A program made the translations under genes and the position numbers. A stretch of DNA of 64,000 nucleotides from Patescibacteria group bacterium (GTDB lineage Bacteria > Patescibacteriota > Microgenomatia > UBA8517): positions 108,645 to 172,644 of the forward strand of contig JAHJHG010000001.1 in NCBI GenBank assembly GCA_018823885.1, read 5' to 3'. The notes below the pieces were generated by a model, which was not told the origin of the DNA, did not search any database, and saw only the letters and a list, made by a program, of their open reading frames with translations. Every line of letters begins with the position of its first letter. The first letter of the stretch is position 1. This document shows, one piece after another, positions 47,979 through 60,782 of the stretch.

Positions 47979-48875
47979 TTAGTCACTGATAAGTCTCCTG
48001 AAACGCCAAAGTTCTATAAATCTTAGGCCAACATACTTACCTACCAGGTAATCTATAGCGATAACTATTAATAACAATATTTCCGGATTAAGTAAGGCGA
48101 ATTCTTGCATTGGTTTTAGAGTTAAAAGAACATAGGAGGCGAGAGATAATATTAACGTTTCTGTAGCTAAATTAATGGCTGTCTTTGCGCTTTTACCTGC
48201 CTGGACTCTACTAAAGTCTTCTGCCAAAAGAACCAAAACAAGAACCGGGAAAATGGAGACATTAGTTAAATCAGGGTGCTGAATAATTGGGGTTGTAAAA
48301 AGCACGCCCAATACCCCGATGGCAACAAACCAAAGTAATAGTGCCATTTTAGGAAGATATTGGAGCTTAATCTTAAGTTTTCTCAAAGCCATTCTCGCTG
48401 CAGTGGAGATTGCCACAATCACTAAGAACAGAACTATTCCTACAATCGGCCCCGTAGCCACAAACACAATTGACAAAGCAGCTGGAAGAAAAATTCCAAA
48501 ACCTCGAATTCCAAGTAAATGCCTCGCCGATGCTATGGCTGCAGCCACCATGGGAAGCAATAATAATAAAACAATCGTATTCGGCGGCACTCCAGCCCCT
48601 ACGGCTCCCCTTATGGCATATTTTATTGGATTTGTTGGCCAAACAGGACCAAGCTCTTGCTCCTCTAAAAGCTTCTCAAGAGGACCAATGGTTTCTTCGG
48701 TAGGTTGGGTCAAATCGGGCCTAGGAGACGGACTAGGTTCAGCCTCAAGCCCTGCTGAAGGACTTGCTGTACCGATGGGAGAAAGGCCTTGAGCAAATAT
48801 ATTGGTCACCACGGCAAAGCTTAAAGCTGCCGCGGCCATAAAACTGATAAGAATACTTGCCTTGCGCATTGTCAT
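47979..48875 (-). CDS. polytopic membrane protein, possibly the 7TM partner of ATP-grasp/transglutaminase-type systems
   Basis: 298 aa. N-terminal signal plus Pro-rich spacer, then about 6–7 hydrophobic helices judged by eye. No soluble domain. Confidence 0.45.
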   Translation of the reverse strand: MTMRKASILISFMAAAALSFAVVTNIFAQGLSPIGTASPSAGLEAEPSPSPRPDLTQPTEETIGPLEKLLEEQELGPVWPTNPIKYAIRGAVGAGVPPNTIVLLLLLPMVAAAIASARHLLGIRGFGIFLPAALSIVFVATGPIVGIVLFLVIVAISTAARMALRKLKIKLQYLPKMALLLWFVAIGVLGVLFTTPIIQHPDLTNVSIFPVLVLVLLAEDFSRVQAGKSAKTAINLATETLILSLASYVLLTLKPMQEFALLNPEILLLIVIAIDYLVGKYVGLRFIELWRFRRLISD

Positions 48876-49015
48876 ATTATACCAGTGTAGAAGGGTTTTT
48901 CCCCTATTTGCAAGGGGGGAAAGAGCCTTGCCGTCACCAGGTTGTTTTCCTTAAAAATTGACAGCTCTAAATATATTGATTACGATATTCAATAACTCCC
49001 TAATTTATCATTTAG

Positions 49016-50320
49016 ATGTCCAAAAAGCATCCTTATAAAGAAATTGTTCTTCCTAATAAACTTCGAGTTCTTCTCTATCCCATGGATTCCGTTATGTCTG
49101 TTTATGCTGTTGTATATGTTCGAGTCGGAGCTATTTATGAGAAACAAAAGGAAAGAGGGATCTCGCATTTTACTGAGCACATGCCCTTCTTGGGCACAAA
49201 AGCGTTGCCCACCCCCCTTTCTCTTTCTCAAGCAGCCGACGAGATCGGAGCAAAATACAATGGAATAACAGGAAGATTTAAAACCGAATACTTGATTAAA
49301 TTACCCTATACAAATATAGGTAAGGGGGTAGATTTTCTTTATAATTTTGTATTTGAACCCCTAAATATAGGCAAAGATATTGAAAAAGAAAAAAACGTTA
49401 TTCTCTCTGAATATAATGATTTTTGGCATAATCCTGATAAAAAATTTAATCATGAATTTTGGAGAAAAAGATTTAAACAAAAAGAGCATCCTTACAGCTA
49501 TCGTGCCCTCGGAATACCCAGAACAATTAAGGCTTTTGAAAAAAATGACATTCTTCACTGGAGAGAACAGTACTATAACCCTGCTAATATGATTCTCTCA
49601 ATTGCTGGAAATATAAACGAGAAACAGTTGATTGAAAAACTCAAAACCACTTTTGGCAAAGAAAAAGCAGGAACAAAGAGAAAAGAACCAAAGTTTGGTT
49701 CAAATGATTATTCTAACTTTTCTGTCTTTCTACAAAATGAGCCTAGGCCGCAAATTAGATTTTTCGTAACATTTCCCGCTTTCGGCTACAAACAAGTATC
49801 TCGACAAAAAGAATTGCAATTAGAATTATTAAAAGACATTCTTGGAGGAAGTCCCTCTTCCCGCTTATATCATCGACTAAGAAGAAAAGAAAGATTTGTA
49901 TATAGTGCTGGATGTAATATGAATATCTATCCTTGGATGGGTGCTTTTTATGTTTGGGGTTCCGTGCCAGCAGAAAAGCTCCTTCCTACTATGAAGTCTA
50001 CTAAGCAAGAAATAGACAAAGTATTAAAAACTGGTGTTACTGAAAAAGAGATAAATCTGTCTAGAAAATACATGGCGGCAGCAAGATTAATGCACTTCGA
50101 TAGCCCCGAATCTGTCGCTTACTATTTCGCTAATCAGGTTTTCGATGAAGACAAAATATGGTTTCCTGAAAGGTATATTAAAGAAGCAGAAAAGGTCACC
50201 AAGGAGGAATTGAATAATTTAGCAAAAAAGATTTTTGACTATTCAAAAGTAAATATCTCACTCCTCGGAAATGTTCCAGATAAAACTTTGAAAGCGGTTG
50301 AGGAAATTTTCAAAGTGTAA
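49016..50320 (+). CDS. M16-family (pitrilysin/insulinase-like) zinc peptidase
   Basis: Inverted zinc motif HFTEH (HxxEH) near the N-terminus, 434 aa. Promoter-like TTGACA-17-TACGAT upstream. Confidence 0.75.
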   Translation: MSKKHPYKEIVLPNKLRVLLYPMDSVMSVYAVVYVRVGAIYEKQKERGISHFTEHMPFLGTKALPTPLSLSQAADEIGAKYNGITGRFKTEYLIKLPYTNIGKGVDFLYNFVFEPLNIGKDIEKEKNVILSEYNDFWHNPDKKFNHEFWRKRFKQKEHPYSYRALGIPRTIKAFEKNDILHWREQYYNPANMILSIAGNINEKQLIEKLKTTFGKEKAGTKRKEPKFGSNDYSNFSVFLQNEPRPQIRFFVTFPAFGYKQVSRQKELQLELLKDILGGSPSSRLYHRLRRKERFVYSAGCNMNIYPWMGAFYVWGSVPAEKLLPTMKSTKQEIDKVLKTGVTEKEINLSRKYMAAARLMHFDSPESVAYYFANQVFDEDKIWFPERYIKEAEKVTKEELNNLAKKIFDYSKVNISLLGNVPDKTLKAVEEIFKV

Positions 50321-50378
50321 TTTTATGGAGCCACTTCTTTCCAATTTAGTCTTTTGAAGGTAAAGTCTCTTGGGAAGG
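50321..50378 (+). repeat. copy A of a ~55-nt direct repeat (TTTTATGGAGCCACTTCTTTCCAATTTAGTCTTTTGAAGGTAAAGTCTCTTGGGAAGG)
   Basis: Aligned by eye with the copies at 53163-53220 and 58609-58666, about 80-85% identity, same orientation. Starts right after the M16 peptidase stop codon. Confidence 0.7.
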
Positions 50379-50565
50379 TTAGCTTCTATGCTATAGATAT
50401 TTTCTCCAACCAGATTTACTTAAAATCTCTGGTATTGAACCTTTTCGGTTTTTTGGCCAATTATGAAGGGGTTGTTGAGCGGGATAACCTTTCTCTTCAG
50501 GGTTAGTAAAAACGGTTAGCGCTTCTTTAAAGGTCGAAAATTACCCCAACTGGTATACTTAGCCC

Positions 50566-51525
50566 ATGATAGGCAAAAACTACTTGGCGACAAAAAAGGA
50601 TTTGGAGGCGATAAACGAAGCTTTGCGCTTTGTGTGGCATCCAAAAATGAAGTTTGTCTTCCAAGAAAAATCAAAAATTGCTAATACGGCTGTAATCTCC
50701 TACGACAGCAAGTTTATATATATATGGACACAAAAAGAATTAAAGGGAATTGACAAAATGCAAAGTGGCCACCCCAAGTATTTGTTTTACAAAATACCTC
50801 ATGCCCTAGAACTCAAAGAGAGGTGGCAATATACATGGCATGCAGACTTGTGGAAAAACATGGAAAAATTCCTTCCTGATCAGATAAAAAGAGAGAATTT
50901 GTTTGATATACCAAGGATTGGTGGAGGATTACTCACACCCTTTGTTGAACTTCAGAAGAAGAGAGGGTTCAAATATAATCCATATGTTACTGGCGAATCG
51001 TATCTCGCCACCATCATACATGAGTTCGGACACAACTACTGGAACCAACACAAACTCTGGTGGTACTCAAACAAAGAAAAAAACATTGAGTATCTAACAG
51101 CTGCAAAAAACCTGTATCAAAAAGGGGGGGGAAATCCTAACATACCTTTGCATATACCAACAAAAAGCGAGGTCGGTGAACTATTCGCGTTTTGCACAGA
51201 ATACTATGCAAGCTCCATCTTTTGGCCAACCCATAGGCAAGCCCTTGACATTTTTGGTAAATATCGATTAAAGGAATTAATAAGGGAGGAAAAAGGGAAA
51301 AATCTAGATAAGCAAGATTCTGTCCTTGAGCCGTCAAAGAACTTACATGACTTTTCCCTTGTTTTCGGCAAAATCATATTCGAGTGCCACCCTAAAAAGT
51401 GGCCTAGTTTTCTAACAAGTCCTCCTTACTTAGGAAGTCATTATGGCCTTGGCGGTCCTGGAGGCGGTGATGGACGACTGGGATTACACGGCTGGGGAGG
51501 TTCCCCAGAAGGCAGGCATGACTGA
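50566..51525 (+). CDS. hypothetical HExxH zinc-metallopeptidase-like protein with a Gly-rich C-terminal tail
   Basis: IIHEFGHNYW motif. Extended -10 (TGGTATACT) 7 nt before the ATG suggests a leaderless start. The last 85 bp overlap a convergent small ORF. Confidence 0.5.
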   Translation: MIGKNYLATKKDLEAINEALRFVWHPKMKFVFQEKSKIANTAVISYDSKFIYIWTQKELKGIDKMQSGHPKYLFYKIPHALELKERWQYTWHADLWKNMEKFLPDQIKRENLFDIPRIGGGLLTPFVELQKKRGFKYNPYVTGESYLATIIHEFGHNYWNQHKLWWYSNKEKNIEYLTAAKNLYQKGGGNPNIPLHIPTKSEVGELFAFCTEYYASSIFWPTHRQALDIFGKYRLKELIREEKGKNLDKQDSVLEPSKNLHDFSLVFGKIIFECHPKKWPSFLTSPPYLGSHYGLGGPGGGDGRLGLHGWGGSPEGRHD

Positions 51526-51635
51526 GCAGCAACTTTATTAGTATCTAAAGTTACCAGTTCAATTGTAGGCTCCTTGGATATCTCGCCGTCAACTTCTCCC
51601 ACCTGCTTAGCAAACGATAGCATTTCTTTTTGCAT
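51441..51635 (-). CDS. small Pro/Cys-rich peptide (64 aa), a candidate RiPP precursor downstream of the radical-SAM/SPASM gene
   Basis: Strong SD (GAAAGGGGG) 8 nt upstream of an ATG. The track start is a GTG three codons earlier. The C-terminus CLPSGEPPQPCNPSRPSPPPGPPRP is core-like. It is antisense to the Gly-rich tail of the HExxH ORF, so the coding strand is ambiguous. Confidence 0.35.
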   Translation of the reverse strand: MQKEMLSFAKQVGEVDGEISKEPTIELVTLDTNKVAAQSCLPSGEPPQPCNPSRPSPPPGPPRP

Positions 51636-51674
51636 TGTTTTCACCCCCTTTCTTCAAATTTGTCTTATTACTTA

Positions 51675-53108
51675 TTAATATTCTATTGGATGTGCGACTT
51701 CAACTCCTTGAGTTGCCACTACTTTTTTTATAAACGGCTCTAAGGTTTCATCATAATAAGGCTTTCCCTCTCCGTTTAATCTCCAGGCCCCCTTTGCCCA
51801 CTCACCTCTATATGGATTGTATGTACATCTGGGATAAGGAGCAGAAAAATATTCACCCTGATTCTGATTAGCTCCTTCCGCAAGGGGTCGACAATCAAAA
51901 CAAGCATATCTATACTCACAGTCCTGACAAACCAATACATTATCTTTTGTATTTCTCCAAACAGTTTCGAGTTTTTGCCCTAAAACTATTTCTCTAAGAG
52001 CCACTTCCAAAGCATTACCGACTATTAAGTCTCTCGAAAAAATACATGGCAATACATTTCCATTATCAGTAATAGTTATTTTGCCTTGTAGACATGAATG
52101 TCCAGAAGTATTTCTAGAGAAAATATCTTTTGAGATTGTAAAATTTGGTGACATCATAAGGCTATATTTCACGATAGATTTCTTAGTTGGCATTATCGAT
52201 GGATTGTCTCCTCTTCCTTTTGGTCTCAAAACGTCTGGTTGCTTATGGGAAAACCCCATTTCTTCTACAAGTTCCTGAGTTTGCTTGATTGTCTGTTCAT
52301 TTGGACTCATTAATACCGTCTCAACTCTTACGGGCACACCAACTTCTTTTAGAAATTTTAAAGCTTCTATTGTTTTTCTGAAACTACCTGGGGTTTTTGT
52401 AATTGAATCATGTAGTTTTTCATCATTTGAATAAAGCGAAGTGGCAACATTTATACCAAGTGCTTTAATTCTTTGAATTTTTTTTGGCGTAAGCATTGTT
52501 GCATTCGTAAAAATTTCAATATATTCATATCCAACATTTTTAGAATATTCTGCAAGATCAAAAACTGTTTCTCCATTTTCTCCCTTATATAGAAGTGGCT
52601 CGCCACCAATAAACTGACATCTTCTACATCCCAAATAGTAAGATTCATCAATAAACTCTTTCCATTTCTCAAAGGAAACCCCCTTATTGTTTTCGAAACT
52701 CTGTTTGGAATGCAAGTTTCTTTCTTTTGAGATACCCATTGCTTTTTGGTACGTGGGTGGCATACATTCCGCATAGCAGTGAATACAACTTTCGTTGCAA
52801 TCATTTGAAACAATCTCGAACCACACAAATTGAAGAGAGGGGCTTCGCATAAGTTCTTGCAACATACTTCTTCGATTGCTTTTTTCCTGGGTTACTAAAT
52901 CCATGGTTTCAAGCTTTTTCCAAAACCCTAAATTTTTAGTTACACCAATCAAAATGTCGCAAGCCGAGTGGTTTATTGAATAAATTCTGGAGGAATTTAC
53001 ATCATAAATTGCTCCTCTTAGTACTCCAGGGACAAAGAAAACACCATCTTTAAATATATGCTCACCTGAGGATAAATGTTCTTTAATATCCAGGCCACGT
53101 TCTTTCAT
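51675..53108 (-). CDS. radical SAM enzyme with a C-terminal SPASM domain (peptide-maturase type)
   Basis: CNESCIHC (CxxxCxxC) cluster. The C-terminal Cys-rich region (...C.DCEYRYACFDC...C) is SPASM-like. The track start at 53186 is a TTG inside repeat B. The start was reassigned to the ATG at 53108, which is preceded by a perfect TTGACA-17-TATATT promoter at 53119-53147 on the minus strand. Confidence 0.8.
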   Translation of the reverse strand: MKERGLDIKEHLSSGEHIFKDGVFFVPGVLRGAIYDVNSSRIYSINHSACDILIGVTKNLGFWKKLETMDLVTQEKSNRRSMLQELMRSPSLQFVWFEIVSNDCNESCIHCYAECMPPTYQKAMGISKERNLHSKQSFENNKGVSFEKWKEFIDESYYLGCRRCQFIGGEPLLYKGENGETVFDLAEYSKNVGYEYIEIFTNATMLTPKKIQRIKALGINVATSLYSNDEKLHDSITKTPGSFRKTIEALKFLKEVGVPVRVETVLMSPNEQTIKQTQELVEEMGFSHKQPDVLRPKGRGDNPSIMPTKKSIVKYSLMMSPNFTISKDIFSRNTSGHSCLQGKITITDNGNVLPCIFSRDLIVGNALEVALREIVLGQKLETVWRNTKDNVLVCQDCEYRYACFDCRPLAEGANQNQGEYFSAPYPRCTYNPYRGEWAKGAWRLNGEGKPYYDETLEPFIKKVVATQGVEVAHPIEY

Positions 53109-53162
53109 GTTTGCACAGAATATAGGATAAAAACATAAAATTGTCAAATAATGAACACGCGC

Positions 53163-53220
53163 TTCTACGGAGCCACTTCTTTCCAATTTAGCCTCTTGAA
53201 GGTAAGATCTCTGGAGGAAG
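53163..53220 (+). repeat. copy B of the ~55-nt direct repeat
   Basis: CTACGGAGCCACTTCTTTCCAATTTAGCCTCTTGAAGGTAAGATCTCTGGAGGAAG. Lies between the rSAM promoter and the NUDIX gene stop. Confidence 0.7.
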
Positions 53221-53295
53221 AAAGGAAGGGGATATTGGATTTTTCCAGAAAGTGGTTATATACGAAGGTGTTCTTGATCCTTGTAAAAAATGCTT

Positions 53296-53757
53296 TTACT
53301 CTATCTCTTTAATGTATTCCCCCTCTTTAGGAAATCCGTTATTGAAATCTACCAATAACTTCGGAGACAATGTTTTTGGTAATAGATTGTCTGATAAATT
53401 ATCAATATCAAGCCAAGTCAACCAAACTGATCCGTCGGGGTGTTCCGGATCTTTTAAACCATCTAGTTTGTCAGTTTTGTTTATACTTCCCAAAATAAAT
53501 AATTCCACACTGTGTTCATTCTCATCAGGTCTAATAAAATCACGGATGTAGAGCATTTTCTGAAAATCAAACTTAACCTTATCTCCACATTCTTCCCTTA
53601 CTTCTCTTGCACAAGCATCCTCTACAGTTTCTCCATATTCCAAATGGCCTCCGATATAATGATAAAAATCACCCTTTTCTCTGTATTGAACAAGAACTTT
53701 CCTGTTATGGATTATTACCAACCTTACCCGAACGTTAATTATATTTTCAGTTTTCAT
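53296..53757 (-). CDS. NUDIX hydrolase
   Basis: Nudix box GGHLEYGETVEDACAREVREECG. Confidence 0.8.
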   Translation of the reverse strand: MKTENIINVRVRLVIIHNRKVLVQYREKGDFYHYIGGHLEYGETVEDACAREVREECGDKVKFDFQKMLYIRDFIRPDENEHSVELFILGSINKTDKLDGLKDPEHPDGSVWLTWLDIDNLSDNLLPKTLSPKLLVDFNNGFPKEGEYIKEIE

Positions 53758-53888
53758 TTATTTATAGTTATTATAAATCTTTTTGTGTTTGTTTTCATTC
53801 CTTTGAGTGCATCGTATTTTTTATAAACCTTTCTAATATCTTAAAGTTTTTTTATAATGTCTCTTTTGGAATGTTATAAATGTAAAAA

Positions 53889-55118
53889 TTAGTTAAATTC
53901 TAATCCCAACTCTCTCGCTTGTTTCAAATTAAAGTTTAATCTCTTAACCCATCTTTTAGAGGGACTAGAAAAAACACGTGTCGATTTAAAAATATTTGCC
54001 AACTTATATGAGTAGTTCTTATTCAAGAATTTCCCCTTTGCTGTATCAAAGCCGCATATTGCAATATTTTCTCTTAATTTTGAATTTGTCATAACCAACT
54101 CAATTTTACTAGCTAAATCTTCATAGTTTCCATGAGTATACAAAAAGCCATTTTTCTCATGTTTTATTATTTCCGAAACTCCGCCGCCATCGGCAGCAAT
54201 AACAGGTTTTTTGAATAACATCCCTTCTAAAATCGTTCTTCCAAAAGCTTCATTTTTTGAGCAAACAAGAACAGCGTCACATTGTTGAAACAACGGATAG
54301 GGATTTTCAATAAAATCTCTAACCTGAAAGCGCCATTTTTTCCCACTCTGATCAATCAAATTATGAATTTTTTTCATGAAAACGTCGTCAGTACACCTAC
54401 CAAGGATTAGCAATTCAACATCCAGTTTTCTGACTAGTAATAACGATGTTGCTCTAATAATATCCAGCTGTCCTTTTTTTTTAGAAATTGTTCCCGCTAT
54501 TAATAACTTAAAAGCGTTGGGGTAATTAAATGTGACCGGTAATTTTTTTATAAAAAGCTTTCTGTTAATTCTAATTGAGTTATAAACTACAGTAGATTTT
54601 GATCTTAAAATGTACTTACCAAATTCCTTCATTACAGCTTTAGAGTTAAATATAACCCTAGATGAAAAGTCATTAATAAATTTAGCAGTGAAAGCAAAGC
54701 CAAACTCGAATATAAAACCATGATCCTTCTCGCCTAATTCTCTAACATACCATATGTGAGGAACCCTTAACATATTGGCTACCAGTGCTCCTATGCAAAT
54801 CGTACTGGTGTTTGTTACCACCAAATCGGGGTGAAATTTCTCAATTTTGTTTTTCAGTCTCTTCGCACTATCTAAATGAGTATAAAAAAAGGTATTTACT
54901 GGTCTCCTGCTTTCTCCTCTGCGCACAGTCCACCACTTATATGGATGAATAATCCAATTTATTCTTGCTCTTGTAAGTTTGACGCCAAGTGCCCCATCAG
55001 ACGGAAGAACTACGCACAATCGCATCTTGGGAATTTTTTTTAGTGTTTCAAGCAAATAAAGCAAAGAACGCTCTGCACCTCCTAAATTGCTACTATGCGA
55101 AATAAAACAAATTTTCAT
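53889..55118 (-). CDS. glycosyltransferase family 4 (GT-B, GT1-type)
   Basis: MKICFISHSSNLGGAERSLL N-terminus. C-terminal E..G..ILE.M....PVIA motif region. Confidence 0.8.
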   Translation of the reverse strand: MKICFISHSSNLGGAERSLLYLLETLKKIPKMRLCVVLPSDGALGVKLTRARINWIIHPYKWWTVRRGESRRPVNTFFYTHLDSAKRLKNKIEKFHPDLVVTNTSTICIGALVANMLRVPHIWYVRELGEKDHGFIFEFGFAFTAKFINDFSSRVIFNSKAVMKEFGKYILRSKSTVVYNSIRINRKLFIKKLPVTFNYPNAFKLLIAGTISKKKGQLDIIRATSLLLVRKLDVELLILGRCTDDVFMKKIHNLIDQSGKKWRFQVRDFIENPYPLFQQCDAVLVCSKNEAFGRTILEGMLFKKPVIAADGGGVSEIIKHEKNGFLYTHGNYEDLASKIELVMTNSKLRENIAICGFDTAKGKFLNKNYSYKLANIFKSTRVFSSPSKRWVKRLNFNLKQARELGLEFN

Positions 55119-55123
55119 GTAAT

Positions 55124-56890
55124 TTAGAAAGTTTTTAGTTTTAAAAGTTTATTCATAGGTGTGTTTTTTTCGAAAAAATTAAACCATAAAACGATATCAA
55201 GGATGGTACTAATCCTATTTATTTTTAAATTCATTTTTGCATCGTTGATAATTTTTCTCTTCCTTAAAAAAGGTGGAAAATCTAAGCGATTTAATAAATC
55301 AAACAGATATCTCGCGTCATTTTTAGAGATTTCAGAATAGTCGCTTATTAACTCTCTTGGGTTTTCATTAAATTGCATAATTCTTTGGTCATAAGCTCTC
55401 AATTTCTCCAAATTTTCATCGCTTGTTGACCTAATTTGCTTAACTTCAGGAAATGCTGTGTCGATTATTCGTCTATAAATAAACTTAAATTTGTAATCAT
55501 GTTGAATGCTTAGGCCAAATGTAATTAGTTTGTCGTTGAAAAATGGCTGTATTACTGTTTTCAAACAACTTCCAATAATATTACTAGGTGTTATGCTGAT
55601 TCCATTTCTAATTCGGTTTTTCATTAGAAAAACTACCATTCGATTTTCAGTCGTAGGTATATTATTCAATTCATCAACGACCCAGTCTTCTTTGTATTTA
55701 ATACTCTTCCAAACCTCAGGGTTTAAATAATCTTCGAGCCAAGAATATTCAAATCCAAACTGCTTTCTAAAAAGTTTAGCTAGATAGCGTGAATTCGCTT
55801 TCATTTGAATATGTATTGGGCGCACTCGAGTAGAGCGCATTATTATGTCTCCTCCAATACCATCAATATAAGTATCATATTTTTTGATCGTTTCCAGCAT
55901 CGGCATCGTCCATAAATGTTCTTGCACTAAACAGTCGCTCAAGTAAGCTTTCATAACAAAAAAACGTTCGTAAATATCGGCAGGTCTATCAATATAAATA
56001 CTATTTATCCCCAAAGCATTAGATAGTTCGCATACAATGTCTTTCTCTGAACCGCAAGGATGGAGTGTGGTTATCGTGTCAAAATCAGATTGGTTAGAAA
56101 ACTTTTTGAGACCAGCCACAATACACCGGGAATCATACCCTCCAGAGAGAGCAGTTATCGATTTCGATCCTTCAATGGTTTTTCCCAAATCACTAAAAAC
56201 CTTTCTAAATATTTCTACACCCTCTGAGGTTTTTTGTTCGTAGCTGGAGTTATAATCAATATCAATTTGCGAAAAATCCCAATACTTTTCCTGTCTAACA
56301 CTAATAGCATCTCTGTAGGATATCTTAACTAAAGTTCCATTTGATATTAAGCGAATATCTTTGTAAAAAGTTTCTTCACCTAACGTAAATCTAAAAGTTA
56401 AATATTCCCCCCACGCTTTCCAGTTTATGGGTGGTTTCCTATCTAATAAAGGTATTAGCAACTTTACTTCAGATCCGAAGGCAAAACCATCAGCACATCT
56501 GCATACGAAAAGGGGTCGAGAACCATATTTGTCAGTTATTATAAAAATTAGTTGTTTTTTCTTATCTATTAATAAAAGATTAAAGGATCCATTAATCTTT
56601 TTGACAAAATTAATAGAATGTTTTTTGTTATACAAGCTTATTATGTGACTTGCAGTTTTTTCTGCTTTAGGCTTATCAAAAAGATTTCCTTGAAAAACAA
56701 CAATCAAATTTTCGTCTTCAGCTATACAATCATCAATTGGGGCCAAACCACAGACTGATATTTTATAATTATTATCTTTAAAATATCTAAGATTTTTGTA
56801 ATAACTTTCAACACCTGCTGGAAGTATTCCTGTAAAACTCAAGTTGTTTCGTGATAAGTTTTTGCCTATCCTTCCAAAGATTTTAAGCAT
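55124..56890 (-). CDS. asparagine synthetase-like amidotransferase (AsnB family) lacking the N-terminal Cys nucleophile
   Basis: PP-loop SGGYDSR and the AsnB synthetase domain are present. The N-terminus is MLKIFG rather than MCG. Confidence 0.75.
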   Translation of the reverse strand: MLKIFGRIGKNLSRNNLSFTGILPAGVESYYKNLRYFKDNNYKISVCGLAPIDDCIAEDENLIVVFQGNLFDKPKAEKTASHIISLYNKKHSINFVKKINGSFNLLLIDKKKQLIFIITDKYGSRPLFVCRCADGFAFGSEVKLLIPLLDRKPPINWKAWGEYLTFRFTLGEETFYKDIRLISNGTLVKISYRDAISVRQEKYWDFSQIDIDYNSSYEQKTSEGVEIFRKVFSDLGKTIEGSKSITALSGGYDSRCIVAGLKKFSNQSDFDTITTLHPCGSEKDIVCELSNALGINSIYIDRPADIYERFFVMKAYLSDCLVQEHLWTMPMLETIKKYDTYIDGIGGDIIMRSTRVRPIHIQMKANSRYLAKLFRKQFGFEYSWLEDYLNPEVWKSIKYKEDWVVDELNNIPTTENRMVVFLMKNRIRNGISITPSNIIGSCLKTVIQPFFNDKLITFGLSIQHDYKFKFIYRRIIDTAFPEVKQIRSTSDENLEKLRAYDQRIMQFNENPRELISDYSEISKNDARYLFDLLNRLDFPPFLRKRKIINDAKMNLKINRISTILDIVLWFNFFEKNTPMNKLLKLKTF

Positions 56891-56922
56891 AATGTATAAT
56901 ATTTTACCAGAGTTTATAATTT

Positions 56923-57825
56923 ATGACATCTTATTCATTTATAATCCCATCATTCAACTCGGCCAAGGATCTCATGACGTGTGTTAGGAGTCTAAACAGT
57001 TTAAAATACAATAAGCGTAAATATGAAATTATTATTGTAGATGATGGTTCAACAGACCAATCGACTTCGCAAATAAAAAGACTCAACATAGCCAACCTAA
57101 AGATTTATAAGAACCCAAAACAAGGTGCTGCTGCTGCCCGGAATTATGGCATAGAAAAAGCAAAGAAAAACATCCTTATATTTCTAGACCAGGATGTATC
57201 AGTTAAAGAAAATTTGCTTAACATATATGATAGTGCTTTAAAGATTACTGGTGCAGATGCGGTGCAAGGTAATATTTGGAAGCAACTAATAAATACTGAG
57301 CTAACGAAGACACATGCAACGTGGAGAAAGATAGTATTTATAAACAAAGTTAACGATCATGATGGATTTATAAAAACTATTGTTACCAGGAATGTAGCCA
57401 TAAAGAAGGAGGTTTTAAATAAAATACTACGAAAAGATGGTTATATTTTTGACGAGAAATTTAAAGGTACTGGTGGCGAAGACCGCGAACTAGGATATAG
57501 AATTAATAAGCTTGGATTTAATATTTATCTTGAGCCCCAAGCCATCGTAAAACACAAAGACCCTGACAAGTTATTGGGTATCCTTATCCAAAAATATAAA
57601 CACGCACGGGGCGATGTAAAATTGGGGATTGGAGAAAAGTTTTACGACATATCTAACTTTAAGAGGGTTGTCATAAATCCGTTGGGAAGTGGAGTTCCTC
57701 TATATTTTTCATTTCTTATCTGGTGCTTTCATATAGCTGGTTGCGAAATCGAAAGAGCTAAGCAAAAACTTATCATAATTTCAAACGGTATTTTTTCCAG
57801 AAATCATAGCCCAAGGGGTTTTTAA
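56923..57825 (+). CDS. glycosyltransferase family 2
   Basis: FIIPSFNSAKDL...EIIIVDDGSTD and a DxD-containing core. Confidence 0.75.
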   Translation: MTSYSFIIPSFNSAKDLMTCVRSLNSLKYNKRKYEIIIVDDGSTDQSTSQIKRLNIANLKIYKNPKQGAAAARNYGIEKAKKNILIFLDQDVSVKENLLNIYDSALKITGADAVQGNIWKQLINTELTKTHATWRKIVFINKVNDHDGFIKTIVTRNVAIKKEVLNKILRKDGYIFDEKFKGTGGEDRELGYRINKLGFNIYLEPQAIVKHKDPDKLLGILIQKYKHARGDVKLGIGEKFYDISNFKRVVINPLGSGVPLYFSFLIWCFHIAGCEIERAKQKLIIISNGIFSRNHSPRGF

Positions 57826-58419
57826 CAAAATTAGCAAGTCAAGAAACAGGGATTTTTTCCCCGCATAATATGCGTCCAATTCTATTCTTTTGTCGAAATC
57901 CACACTACTTCTTCCCGATACTTGCCAATATCCTGTAATACCTGGTTTGACGGATAAAACATTTTTCAGCAATTTCTTTTTCTCGGGAAACTTTCTAAAC
58001 TGTTGCCCAAGCTCTTCAGGATAATATGGTCTAGGTCCGACAATGCTCATTTCACCCTTCAAAACATTCAACAGCTGTGGAATTTCGTCGATTGAGTGTT
58101 TCCTTATAAACCTACCGACTGGAGTCACTCTTGGATCGTTATAGAGCTTGTAACCAGATTTTGTATATTCTTTATGGAGATTCTTGAAACGAGGGTCTGT
58201 TTTTAAAAGTTCATGAGCATTTACTATCATTGACCTAAATTTATATGGAAAAAAAGCTCTATTGCTCTTCCCTACTCGCTTTGGTGTATTGGCAAAAATT
58301 GGGCCATGGGTTGTTAGTTTAATTAATAATGCGGTGATTAGTATAACAGGGGAAAAAAATATCAGTAGAAAAATAGCCCCAACAATATCTATTGATCTTT
58401 TTAATATCTTATAAATCAT
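57781..58419 (-). CDS. small phosphoglycosyl transferase (bacterial sugar transferase family, PglC/WbaP C-terminal-domain type)
   Basis: Single N-terminal TM helix followed by ...YKFRSM..., DE.PQL.NVL.G.MS.VGPRP motifs. Confidence 0.8.
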   Translation of the reverse strand: MIYKILKRSIDIVGAIFLLIFFSPVILITALLIKLTTHGPIFANTPKRVGKSNRAFFPYKFRSMIVNAHELLKTDPRFKNLHKEYTKSGYKLYNDPRVTPVGRFIRKHSIDEIPQLLNVLKGEMSIVGPRPYYPEELGQQFRKFPEKKKLLKNVLSVKPGITGYWQVSGRSSVDFDKRIELDAYYAGKKSLFLDLLILLKTPWAMISGKNTV

Positions 58420-58461
58420 ATAATAAATTCTACATTAAGAAAGCAGGTCAAAGCTAGTATA

Positions 58462-58608
58462 ATGCAAATAATGAAAGCGGCAATATATAATCCGTATTTA
58501 GACACCTTGGGTGGTGGCGAGCGCTATACGGTGGCAGTTGCTACAACCTTGAAAAAGAACGGTTATTTAGTCGATACTGAATGGAAAGATTCTTCAATAA
58601 AAAGTCTA
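58462..58608 (+). pseudogene. 5' fragment (about 48 codons) of a GT-B glycosyltransferase gene, truncated at repeat copy C
   Basis: The N-terminus MQIMKAAIYNPYLDTLGGGERYTVAVATTLKKNGYLVD looks like a glycosyltransferase start. Recognisable sequence stops where the repeat begins, and the remaining ORF is repeat-derived or antisense sequence. Confidence 0.5.
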
Positions 58609-58666
58609 TTTTATGGAGCCACTTCTTTCCACCTTAACCTTTTGAAGGTGAGGTCTCTGGGGAAAG
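58609..58666 (+). repeat. copy C of the ~55-nt direct repeat
   Basis: TTTTATGGAGCCACTTCTTTCCACCTTAACCTTTTGAAGGTGAGGTCTCTGGGGAAAG. Coincides with the glycosyltransferase truncation point and with the stop of the 723-aa minus-strand gene. Confidence 0.7.
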
Positions 58667-60782
58667 TTAAAACAAAGTCTGGAGCAAATTCGAAAACTTC
58701 CGCCGGCTCATCAGCATTATCACCCAATAGATCTCTCTCTAAGACTACCCCGCCATATGCAGCCACCATTCCTCTAACATGTAATTGGTTACTTCCCGCT
58801 CCTGTTCTGAATTGGCCTTCTGACAAAAATACTCCCTCTATTTCTACCGCAACTGGGTGAGAAACATTTGCATCAATAGAGATATTTCCTTTGTTTCCAC
58901 TATCGTCCTTGCCCACAATAAACATTATGAATCCTGTGCCATCAACAACATTAATTCTGTCATTGATATATAAATCTGCATTTTCCACTAAAACAACCAC
59001 TTTTCTAGTTCCTGGCATATTTATACTATTACTTATTGTTAAATCGCCCCAAGTATTGCCGTCAAAGTGATACCAAACATAACCCCTTGAAGGTGCTCCT
59101 CCCGAAGTAAAGAATCCTCCATTGACAGAAGCTTGTTCAATCTCTGTTAAGCTTACTTCAACATCTGAACGTACCATTTTTCTAAAGAAATTGTAGTCAT
59201 ATATTTTACTAAACAAGCTCTGAGTATTAGCAAGCCAGCCAGTTGAAGAAACACCTCCTTCTCCAAAATTTGCAGTAGAGCCACCATAAATAGGAACACC
59301 AGGATAACCGCCAAGTCCCTCTAAACCAAAGAGTGGGTTGCACCCAGGCAAGGCACAACTTGAAGGAATTGAAGAAATTATATCCCCACTTGTAATAACA
59401 TCCGCGTCTATCACCTGCCACCATGGACCGGGGGCAGTAACATTAAGAATAGCCGTATCAGTACATCTCTGTGCACCACCCATTATTACATTTGAAGTAA
59501 TTGTTGAACTACCAACAGCAAGTGTTTCCCCAACTGTTTGGTATGGTTGGGTGGTATCTGATGCCGGATTTACGGTTGATACGGCGGTATTGCTCGAAGA
59601 AAAATTCACCTGACCTACAATACCAGCTCCAATTGTAACCGTAGCTATATAATTCGCGTTTGTACCTATAGCCACACTTACAGTAGAAGGGTCTAAGCTA
59701 GCTGTGCATGAAGGGGTGGGGGTAGGTGTTGCTGCACATGCAGCGTCATCAACACACCTTGACTCAGCAGCACACCCAGGAGGAGAACATGTGCGCGTTT
59801 GTAATCTTTCATTACTAGGACAAGAACCCCCTCCACATGCACCATTTACCCAACTACCACAACCACACGTCCAATAGCAGCTTCCATATCTGGTCTCACA
59901 AGTATCAATTCCACAACCGGGAGCATAGCAGGACGTGCCACTAACTCTGCATTCTCTATTAAAAGCCCAAACACAATCTTTTACATAAACACATGTTCCA
60001 AGACACTCCCACCTTTTTAGAAAGATATCATAATAACAATTACAATCTGCTCCATATGTGCTACAGCCCGATCCGTTTGAACTACACTCAAGCCACCATT
60101 CGTTAACAAAACACTGCGTTCCCGTTCCCGTACATGATTGAGCCATCACCGTTTTTATGGGCCTAAACTTCCCTATAAAAAGAGCGGTCTTTTTTTTACC
60201 TAATTCAATAAATTCAAATTTATTATTAACTACTTCCTGCTGAATCTTTATTAACTCCTCTGATAGCTTATCTGGTTCTAAATCTCCGTTCGAAATTATG
60301 AACAGCCCCTCAACAAAATAGGAACTCACTATCGTATTAACACTTGCACCTCCTCCGCTCAACTCAGAAAGTTTGGGATTTATATAAAGAAAAAGTTCAT
60401 ATGTCTCGCTATCCTCATCATACGCTCCCCAAAAACCTCTTAATACCGTCCTTTCACCGCCATCAGTAGGCGTAACTATTTTGAGGACGGGCTGCTCTTC
60501 ATTTGTTAAGATAATTTTTATCTTTTCAGTGAAGTTTATTTGTTTGTCTTCAAAATTCATTACCCCACTTGCCATAATTCTATCTAGTATCCCTTTTTCC
60601 AATAAATATGTTTCTAGGGCTTCTTTGTCTTTAATTCGAAGTTCTAAATTGTCCTGCTGTGATTGAGTTTTAATGTATATGTTGCCTATTTTCTGACTTT
60701 TGTTGGCTCTATAAAGAAGAGTAATTTCAACAACCACGACAGCAAGAAGAATAAATAATATAATATAGAGCAGTTTTCTCAC
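58611..60782 (-). CDS. large secreted/surface protein with an extremely Cys-rich module
   Basis: 723 aa. Signal anchor (LLYIILFILLAVVVV). About 35 Cys within roughly 150 residues (...CTGTGTQCFVNEWWLECSSNGSGCSTYGADCNCYY...CGCGSWVNGACGGGSCP...), then a PTPTPS linker and Gly/Ser/Thr-rich repeats. Confidence 0.55.
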   Translation of the reverse strand: MRKLLYIILFILLAVVVVEITLLYRANKSQKIGNIYIKTQSQQDNLELRIKDKEALETYLLEKGILDRIMASGVMNFEDKQINFTEKIKIILTNEEQPVLKIVTPTDGGERTVLRGFWGAYDEDSETYELFLYINPKLSELSGGGASVNTIVSSYFVEGLFIISNGDLEPDKLSEELIKIQQEVVNNKFEFIELGKKKTALFIGKFRPIKTVMAQSCTGTGTQCFVNEWWLECSSNGSGCSTYGADCNCYYDIFLKRWECLGTCVYVKDCVWAFNRECRVSGTSCYAPGCGIDTCETRYGSCYWTCGCGSWVNGACGGGSCPSNERLQTRTCSPPGCAAESRCVDDAACAATPTPTPSCTASLDPSTVSVAIGTNANYIATVTIGAGIVGQVNFSSSNTAVSTVNPASDTTQPYQTVGETLAVGSSTITSNVIMGGAQRCTDTAILNVTAPGPWWQVIDADVITSGDIISSIPSSCALPGCNPLFGLEGLGGYPGVPIYGGSTANFGEGGVSSTGWLANTQSLFSKIYDYNFFRKMVRSDVEVSLTEIEQASVNGGFFTSGGAPSRGYVWYHFDGNTWGDLTISNSINMPGTRKVVVLVENADLYINDRINVVDGTGFIMFIVGKDDSGNKGNISIDANVSHPVAVEIEGVFLSEGQFRTGAGSNQLHVRGMVAAYGGVVLERDLLGDNADEPAEVFEFAPDFVLTFPRDLTFKRLRWKEVAP

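Follow-up and report, generated by a model that had tools for sequence, protein, structure and literature searches.

Gene acquisition by the tiny, streamlined genomes of the candidate phyla radiation (CPR, Patescibacteria) is poorly understood, and few recognisable mobile elements are found in them. In other bacteria, homology-facilitated illegitimate recombination (HFIR) occurs in naturally transformable Acinetobacter and in Streptococcus pneumoniae. At icd of E. coli, e14 and phage 21 occupy the 3' end of a coding gene, where the element supplies a replacement end and a C-terminal pseudogene, icdC, remains (PMC13626634), the differences between icd and the displaced end being mostly conservative or synonymous (PMC13626634; Hill et al. 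1989, cited there). In the tycheposons and tRNA-3'-end islands of Prochlorococcus, also a streamlined genome, insertion is repeated at one conserved end, newer arrivals pushing older ones outward, and the islands contain scattered partial copies of the target gene as well as adaptive and defence cargo (bioRxiv 10.1101/2020.12.28.424599). The locus described here lies in a 64-kb window (the whole stretch of DNA analysed, from contig JAHJHG010000001.1 of a Patescibacteria group bacterium), in which an earlier note had pointed out three copies of a repeat of about 55 nt. The repeat was found to consist of the last ~16–20 codons and the stop codon of a conserved Microgenomates/Woesebacteria surface-protein gene, here called fam, and foreign DNA has probably been inserted repeatedly at the fam stop codon, regenerating the gene end and displacing the old ends downstream, where they persist as ghosts. 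A literature search on CPR cassette hot spots or integrons returned nothing relevant and no description of insertion at the fam end.

The repeat as a coding gene end

The three same-orientation copies were confirmed at 50321–50378 (copy A), 53163–53220 (copy B) and 58609–58666 (copy C), 2842 and 5446 nt apart, and no other direct-repeat family in the whole window ranks above theirs. All three contain the 17-mer GGAGCCACTTCTTTCCA without mismatch on the plus strand, with a match count that none of 100 shuffles reached, and the latter half of the repeat is likewise matched three times in the window. Homology extends over ~46–62 nt at ~87% identity, the flanks lying outside it. Since the same three copies with identical spacing are present in three independent metagenome-assembled genomes of the species, an assembly artefact is excluded. 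Read on the minus strand, all the copies are in-frame coding sequence, ...RD(L/F)TFKRL(N/R)WKEVAP-stop. Copy C (58608–58669, minus strand; LTFPRDLTFKRLRWKEVAP-TAA) is the functional 3' end of fam (58611–60782, minus strand), comprising its last ~19 codons and the stop codon at 58611–58613; the gene encodes a predicted membrane-anchored surface protein of 723 aa with the terminus ...FPRDLTFKRLRWKEVAP-stop. Copies B (53165–53213, minus strand; SRDLTFKRLNWKEVAP with a TAG stop at 53165–53167) and A (50320–50381, minus strand; LTFPRDFTFKRLNWKEVAP with a TAA stop at 50323–50325) are ghost ends, whose frames are open for 47 and 20 codons, respectively, and contain no ATG, GTG or TTG.

A protein search yielded 46 homologues of fam, all from Patescibacteria (CPR)/Microgenomates, and nearly all of the termini among those listed conform to ...PAE-x-FE-(Y/F)-APD....FP......W-x-E-(V/I/L)-x-P. 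Residues W718, E720 and P723 are invariant across a 30-sequence alignment. Within the last six codons, synonymous sites differ freely from genome to genome, which places the conservation at the protein level and not at a DNA-level site. The protein consists of an N-terminal transmembrane helix, a Cys-rich region, an Ig-like Big_2-type domain and a conserved C-terminal domain; a Pfam search of it gave no hit, and no known relative of the C-terminal domain was found. In the AlphaFold2 model (predicted local distance difference test score of 70), the Ig-like part matches S-layer SbsC, Big_2 and intimin, and the last nine residues are of low confidence. Two of the loci surveyed below contain two full-length fam paralogues on the same strand, adjacent with a gap of 82 nt in L051 (9014–13195) and ~1.8 kb apart in L121 (6076–11350).

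The conservation of the sequence among the three copies, along with a plus-strand ATG and TGA in copies A and C, is what a functional non-coding element (a regulatory RNA, a terminator or a miniature inverted-repeat transposable element, MITE) or a plus-strand peptide of 10 aa would also offer, and both an intergenic or MITE-like element and the peptide had been proposed in the earlier note. Neither proposal held, the repeat being the protein-coding 3' end of the minus-strand gene and its orphan copies displaced ends, and such a function is now considered extremely improbable. No Rfam match was obtained between 48800 and 59000 at E ≤ 1, and folding was no better than that of shuffled sequences on either strand (z-scores of −0.8 to +1.6), which discarded a structured RNA and answered the folding comparison suggested earlier with no structure signal. 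Terminal inverted repeats and a T-run are absent, substitutions follow the minus-strand codons, and in the 21 lineages with ghosts every copy lies downstream of fam. The ATG corresponds, on the complementary strand, to the Pro codon and stop (CCA-TAA) and is lost in copy B (CCG-TAG), making the peptide an antisense by-product. The same loss, together with the missing start codons of ghosts A and B, led to the rejection of a small open reading frame (ORF) or precursor of a ribosomally synthesised and post-translationally modified peptide (RiPP) within the repeat. Similarly, a terminator was rejected with a sole terminator-like call, over copy B (53161–53173), formed by a 5-bp stem and a tail of 6 T in 10 bases, and a MITE or transposon with no inverted partner and only three copies in the window, all downstream of fam. 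A diversity-generating retroelement was also dismissed, with no reverse transcriptase and with differences that are third-position transitions of all kinds, showing no adenine-specific pattern. The earlier opinion that the repeat itself is neither promoter nor terminator was thus correct, the promoter-like site nearby lying outside copy B. For annotation, this case is a warning that what looks like a short "intergenic repeat" may be the coding end of an opposite-strand gene that has been displaced.

Ghost ends across lineages

Ghosts were surveyed in 68 loci from species-representative genomes and 80 from metagenomes, the query for each locus being its own last 150 nt of fam plus 20 nt downstream, with a cut-off of E < 1e-5. 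Collapsing near-identical loci left 99 lineages, 87 of which have at least 1 kb downstream. A total of 26 ghosts were found in 21 of these 87 lineages, about a quarter, and all 26 lie downstream of fam on the same strand; the nucleotide search, which covered 704 kb upstream and 811 kb downstream, revealed no ghost upstream or on the opposite strand. The sole upstream ghost was found by peptide pattern only, in L109 (7471–7518), where ...MRWKEVAP-stop lies 2.5 kb upstream of fam on the same strand, with an allele that differs from that fam's own end (FWQEVAP). The ghost repeats measure 20–133 nt, and for ~20 of the 26 the distance from the repeat end to the stop codon is no more than 7 nt, the last six codons and the stop being all that is common to every ghost. 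In L003, a 119-nt repeat is 100% identical to the gene end and finishes exactly at TAG, with unrelated sequence on both sides, and in L156 a 91-nt ghost is also 100% identical.

Some ghosts have peculiar surroundings. In L011 (11104–11215 and 11764–11875), the duplication takes in the final 25 nt of fam with its stop, then 76 nt of intergenic/promoter sequence, and continues for 14 nt (ATGATTGTTTATTT) into the start of two different downstream genes, a boundary unlike that of all other loci. An AbiEii toxin ORF in L127 (7659–8324) and a DUF5674-partner ORF in L100 (1342–1641) read in frame into a ghost and use its stop, these read-through cassette ORFs ending in ...NWKEVAP or ...RMRWKETAP.

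The full-length tandem paralogues of L051 and L121 raise the idea that three complete fam copies once stood in the window, two of which decayed to their last codons. This origin is regarded as highly unlikely. The ghosts are always ≤133 nt and confined to the extreme 3' end, with no pseudogene of intermediate length seen in the 21 lineages; the 100% identical ghosts of L003 and L156 are separated from the gene by unrelated cargo; the ghosts of L001 and L004 occupy the place of a gene end at an empty site, ~60 nt before the downstream gene start; and the same cassette types recur in different lineages.

The codon differences bear on where the ghosts came from. In 19 pairs of ghost and working end (335 codons), 49 synonymous and 12 nonsynonymous codon differences were counted, against a neutral expectation of ~22% synonymous, with the degenerate ghosts of L001 (frameshift) and L004/L100 left out and with some ascertainment bias in the count. 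A change from one stop codon to another was found in 8 of the 19 pairs, and all six differences in the 19 codons of the L120 ghost are synonymous. This mostly synonymous divergence indicates that the ghosts were formerly working gene ends. The divergence would have arisen while both copies were under selection as gene ends, hence in different genomes, which implies that one copy arrived by transfer. The ghosts in the window are closer to the functional end of a relative, L074, than to copy C, ghost A being identical at 45 of 51 nt to the former and 44 of 51 to the latter, and ghost B at 46 and 42 of 51, respectively. Additionally, a second ghost in L120 carries the allele type RRIFWQEVAP, typical of another lineage. 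A mosaic test of fam between L120 and L103 gave a divergence of ~0.65–0.95 per 60-nt segment, too uniform to place a crossover.

Inserted cassettes and the unoccupied site

The comparison with an empty site that the earlier note had suggested was possible with L074, whose fam protein is 84% identical to that of the window over the aligned C-terminal half and which is syntenic with the window on both sides (ATP-grasp, RimK and ribosomal L12/L10/L1/L11). In L074, the gap from the fam stop to the 7TM_transglut gene is only 42 nt; 12 nt past the stop begins the promoter CCTTGCAAGTAGAGGAAAAACC...TACAAT, and the same promoter is found just upstream of 48875 in the window. The shared promoter shows that the window holds ~9.7 kb of extra DNA between it and the fam stop, made up of a sugar-modification/NUDIX cassette, a radical S-adenosylmethionine (rSAM) RiPP cassette and an M16 peptidase gene. 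The ghosts of L001 and L004, ~60 nt before the 7TM_transglut start, stand where the resident gene end is expected at an unoccupied site. In L078 (11900–12230), the space between fam and the 7TM_transglut promoter contains a decayed antisense remnant (~330 nt) of the M16 3' end, from which it follows that the region loses DNA by deletion as well as gaining it. The earlier proposal that the repeats delimit gene cassettes as recombination or insertion boundaries is therefore upheld.

Inserts at fam span 0.5–7 kb, often several in tandem, and the cassettes carry their own promoters and are of mixed orientation. The most compact array is that of L103, in which an AbiEii-type pair, BrnT/BrnA and HicA/HicB form three cassettes in 2.2 kb, followed by ghosts of 56, 36 and 58 nt, respectively, each cassette opening with a promoter-like motif directly past a stop codon; L026 and L127 also have more than one ghost. 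In L120, a homologue of the RiPP-type cassette of the window (rSAM, Cys/Pro-rich peptide and HExxH-like protein) directly follows fam and is succeeded by a ghost and a toxin-antitoxin (TA) cassette, the same one that directly follows fam in L103 and L107. The difference between L120 and L103/L107 is a presence/absence polymorphism of a cassette plus one gene end. The related loci L003 (6.3 kb) and L110 (0.7 kb) have different inserts and ghosts of different length, with the same sequence past the ghost. Four lineages whose fam alleles have diverged share an AbiEii-type cassette that starts at position +1 from the stop (ATTTGGTATAAT...), and unrelated cassette types begin 0–3 nt past the stop codon. 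A cassette-specific ghost length, with cassette and ghost forming one unit, was suggested by the DUF5674 cassettes (25–31 nt) and was dropped with the inconsistent AbiEii/YcaO ghosts (27 vs 94 nt).

About 75 insert ORFs were scanned against Pfam. The cargo includes NUDIX (repeatedly), glycosyltransferases, deacetylases, PIG-L, WbqC, sugar epimerases and aminotransferases; MNT/HepT, AbiEii, BrnT/BrnA, HicA and Fic; YcaO with nitroreductase, histidine phosphatase and APH-type kinase; and rSAM, C39 peptidase with an AMP-binding enzyme, adenylate kinases and GTP cyclohydrolase II. NUDIX genes are the commonest cargo, often beside a ghost and usually with sugar-modifying enzymes, and occur in the window (53296–53757), L026, L032, L040, L064, L076, L083 and L113.

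On the minus strand, the order in the window is fam, cassette 1, ghost B, cassette 2, ghost A, M16 (opposite strand), the conserved promoter and 7TM_transglut, past which lie ATP-grasp_ST, RimK, a 684-aa protein and ribosomal protein genes. The cassette genes were identified in the Pfam scan, the glycosyltransferase (GT) fragment being examined separately. Cassette 1 is a 5.4-kb sugar-modification/NUDIX cassette (53214–58610, mixed strands) with, from the fam side, a GT4-like N-terminus (58462–58608, plus strand), Bac_transf (57781–58419, minus strand), GT2 (56923–57825, plus strand), AsnB-like amidotransferase (55124–56890, minus strand), GT4 (53889–55118, minus strand) and the NUDIX gene (minus strand). 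The GT4-like fragment, of 49 codons, abuts copy C and has a weak resemblance to GT4 N-termini (MK.AIY.P....GG.ER; E ~0.02, no Pfam hit), with a promoter-like site (58435–58463) just upstream. It is a putative truncated gene at the cassette edge that loses its sense exactly at the fam stop codon; the earlier note had placed this loss correctly at copy C and had missed its cause, namely the real end of the opposite-strand gene.

Ghost B separates cassette 1 from cassette 2 (50382–53164, 2.8 kb, mixed strands), of which ghost A is the distal boundary. Cassette 2, which the earlier note had recognised as a putative RiPP cassette, was found to contain an rSAM/SPASM gene (51675–53108, minus strand), a precursor-like ORF of 64–67 aa with a Cys/Pro-rich tail, ...CLPSGEPPQPCNPSRPSPPPGPPRP (51441–51644, minus strand), and a gene for a 319-aa protein with an HEFGH motif of the HExxH metalloprotease type (50566–51525, plus strand), whose 3' end overlaps the precursor-like ORF by 85 nt. 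From its gene content, cassette 2 (50566–53147) looks like a complete RiPP unit. It has its own promoter-like site, the best of the region (TTGACA-17-TATATT, 53147–53119, minus strand), with the rSAM start at 53108 downstream of it and copy B just outside it, as had been noted. Homologues of cassette 2 are present in L120 (with a 77-aa Cys/Pro/Gly-rich peptide) and, in part, in L012, L054 and L156. Another possible peptide-modification set, inside a glycan locus, was observed upstream of fam in L069 (5343–7580, same species), where PqqD-domain, faint ScmC-like and NTP_transf_5 proteins are encoded among Wzy_C and Bac_transf genes.

By comparison with the empty site, the M16 peptidase gene (49016–50320, plus strand) represents a third inserted segment. 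Its stop codon (50318–50320) is 2 nt from that of ghost A, in agreement with the earlier observation that copy A begins directly past it, and no clear ghost was found distal to this segment in the window. The far edge of the variable region is formed by the 7TM_transglut gene (47979–48875) with its promoter region, CCTTGCAAATAGGGGAAAAACC...TATAAT (47979–48930 in all, minus strand). Just before this promoter (48931–48960, minus strand), the sequence TGGTGACGGCAAGGCTC faintly resembles the repeat core and could be a fourth gene end, that of the M16 segment, in an advanced state of decay, or a chance match; as a fourth ghost (near 48935) it was rejected, its ~9 of 17 matches being at chance level.

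Probable insertion at the stop codon and known systems

In the favoured reading, which is held to be probable, incoming DNA would carry its own fam 3' end beside the cargo and would recombine with the resident gene end, yielding a complete gene with a donor-derived working end, then the cargo and the displaced resident end. Such att-type or Campbell-type integration would be serial, each event shifting the prior end downstream as an untranslated ghost. The window would record at least two events, from C through the sugar/NUDIX cassette to B and then from B through the rSAM RiPP cassette to A, with the M16 segment and the native downstream promoter and gene beyond ghost A. Two enzymatic routes may be considered for this process. 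RecA-type homologous or homology-facilitated recombination, with conserved fam as the anchor, would be favoured by the lack of recombinases, the variable 5' boundaries, the truncated gene at a cassette edge and the L011 duplication ~90 nt past the stop. A site-specific recombinase that acts in trans from a gene elsewhere in the genome, with a crossover at the stop codon, would be favoured by the neat arrays and by the unrelated cassettes that begin 0–3 nt after the stop.

The search for a recombinase or carrier was negative. No integrase, resolvase, transposase or reverse transcriptase was among the families listed for the ~75 insert ORFs, in two Pfam summaries of the 25 most-matched families each, from which a weak single hit could have escaped, and in this species the 10 kb to each side of fam contain none of these enzyme families. 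The earlier suggestion of a site-specific recombinase target found no support, no such enzyme having been seen in or beside any insert. A phage or plasmid carrier was rejected as well, with no IMG/VR viral contig containing a relative of fam or the lineage-specific core.

If the trans-acting recombinase recognised the last ~21 nt of the gene (TGG-AAR-GAR-GTN-GCN-CCN-stop) and inserted and excised circular cassettes, the locus would be an integron-like platform and the ghosts attC-like ends. This explanation is considered possible and somewhat doubtful. It agrees with the L103 array of small self-contained cassettes with a ghost after each, with the start of unrelated cassettes 0–3 nt past the stop in lineages with diverged alleles and with the six codons and stop that alone are common to all ghosts, and TA cassettes are typical of chromosomal integrons. 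Nevertheless, neither the inserts nor, in this species, the 10 kb around fam yielded a recombinase, the 5' boundaries of the ghosts are variable, the synonymous sites of the core vary freely, leaving no conserved DNA site beyond coding constraint, the hairpin potential of the ghosts does not exceed that of shuffled controls, and the cassettes have their own promoters and mixed orientation. A broader proposal, that Microgenomates CPR possess an undescribed cassette platform, in which a trans recombinase or a competence/RecA pathway would use the coding 3' end of a surface gene as attachment site and build integron-like, ghost-capped arrays of promoter-bearing cassettes (toxin-antitoxin, RiPP and NUDIX/glycan), is likewise only tentatively entertained.

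Several observations weigh against repeated insertion by displacement of the gene end. At its 5' end the duplication has no constant limit (20–133 nt), which is unusual for one site-specific recombinase with fixed arms, and the L011 duplication extends ~90 nt past the stop into the next gene. The truncated gene at the start of cassette 1 is more in keeping with an illegitimate join than with the clean end of an element. L007 differs from L020 by a 1.45-kb insertion at the same point without a ghost, and the M16 insertion in the window is also ghostless; these two cases imply more than one process at the hot spot. No circular junction, attP-bearing element or viral contig with the gene end was observed. 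To these are added the exclusion of degenerate ghosts from the codon count and the limited depth of the two Pfam summaries, both mentioned above.

The fam end is a reproducible entry point for foreign genes in roughly a quarter of the Microgenomates lineages sampled, with cargo for defence (TA systems and Fic), peptide natural products (rSAM and YcaO) and cell-surface glycan modification. Ghost ends offer a simple signature in the sequence by which such cassettes can be recognised in metagenomes, and they record past alleles and the order of insertion. If a dedicated recombinase acts, this would be a new cassette-capture system; if none does, the locus would offer a clear example from nature of a portable homology arm provided by a conserved gene.

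Compared with the icd/e14 or tRNA-type islands, the fam locus has flanking direct repeats (one working end and one partial copy) and an unoccupied site, and lacks an element-encoded integrase beside the att site. As for a common crossover core, the last six codons and the stop are shared and most repeats end at the stop, with a 5' extent of 20–133 nt and L011 passing beyond the stop. As in e14 and phage 21, a working gene end is found on one side and a displaced C-terminal end on the far side, with mostly synonymous differences between the two; however, e14 is a single prophage with integrase and excisionase, whereas the fam inserts are recombinase-less, of 0.5–7 kb, often in tandem and distributed over many lineages of a phylum-level group. 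The tycheposons share with the fam locus the repeated insertion at one gene end of a streamlined genome, the outward displacement of older insertions by newer ones, the partial target copies and the adaptive and defence cargo, but the fam target is protein-coding instead of a tRNA or tmRNA, and a tyrosine recombinase, replication module or degraded integrase was not seen in the inserts. HFIR also resembles the process at fam, in that a conserved anchor, here fam, would admit foreign flanking DNA, no element enzyme is needed and truncated genes at cassette edges are explained; unlike the fam insertions, it normally deletes recipient DNA and does not duplicate it, and alone it leaves unexplained the clustering of joins in the last 20–133 nt and the neat arrays. 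With chromosomal integrons, the locus has in common linear arrays of small cassettes that include TA pairs, a repeat after each cassette and a fixed insertion site. In contrast to integrons, no intI was found, the repeats are coding-derived and not attC hairpins (with the fold z-scores given above), the cassettes have their own promoters and mixed orientation, and the first site is the stop codon of a gene. Remnants of target genes flanking islands are thus already known, and what is new is the target, the coding end of a CPR surface-protein gene, together with the recurrence of the insertions across a large uncultured group, the recombinase-less inserts and, in some loci, the integron-like arrays of TA, RiPP and glycan cassettes that bear promoters.

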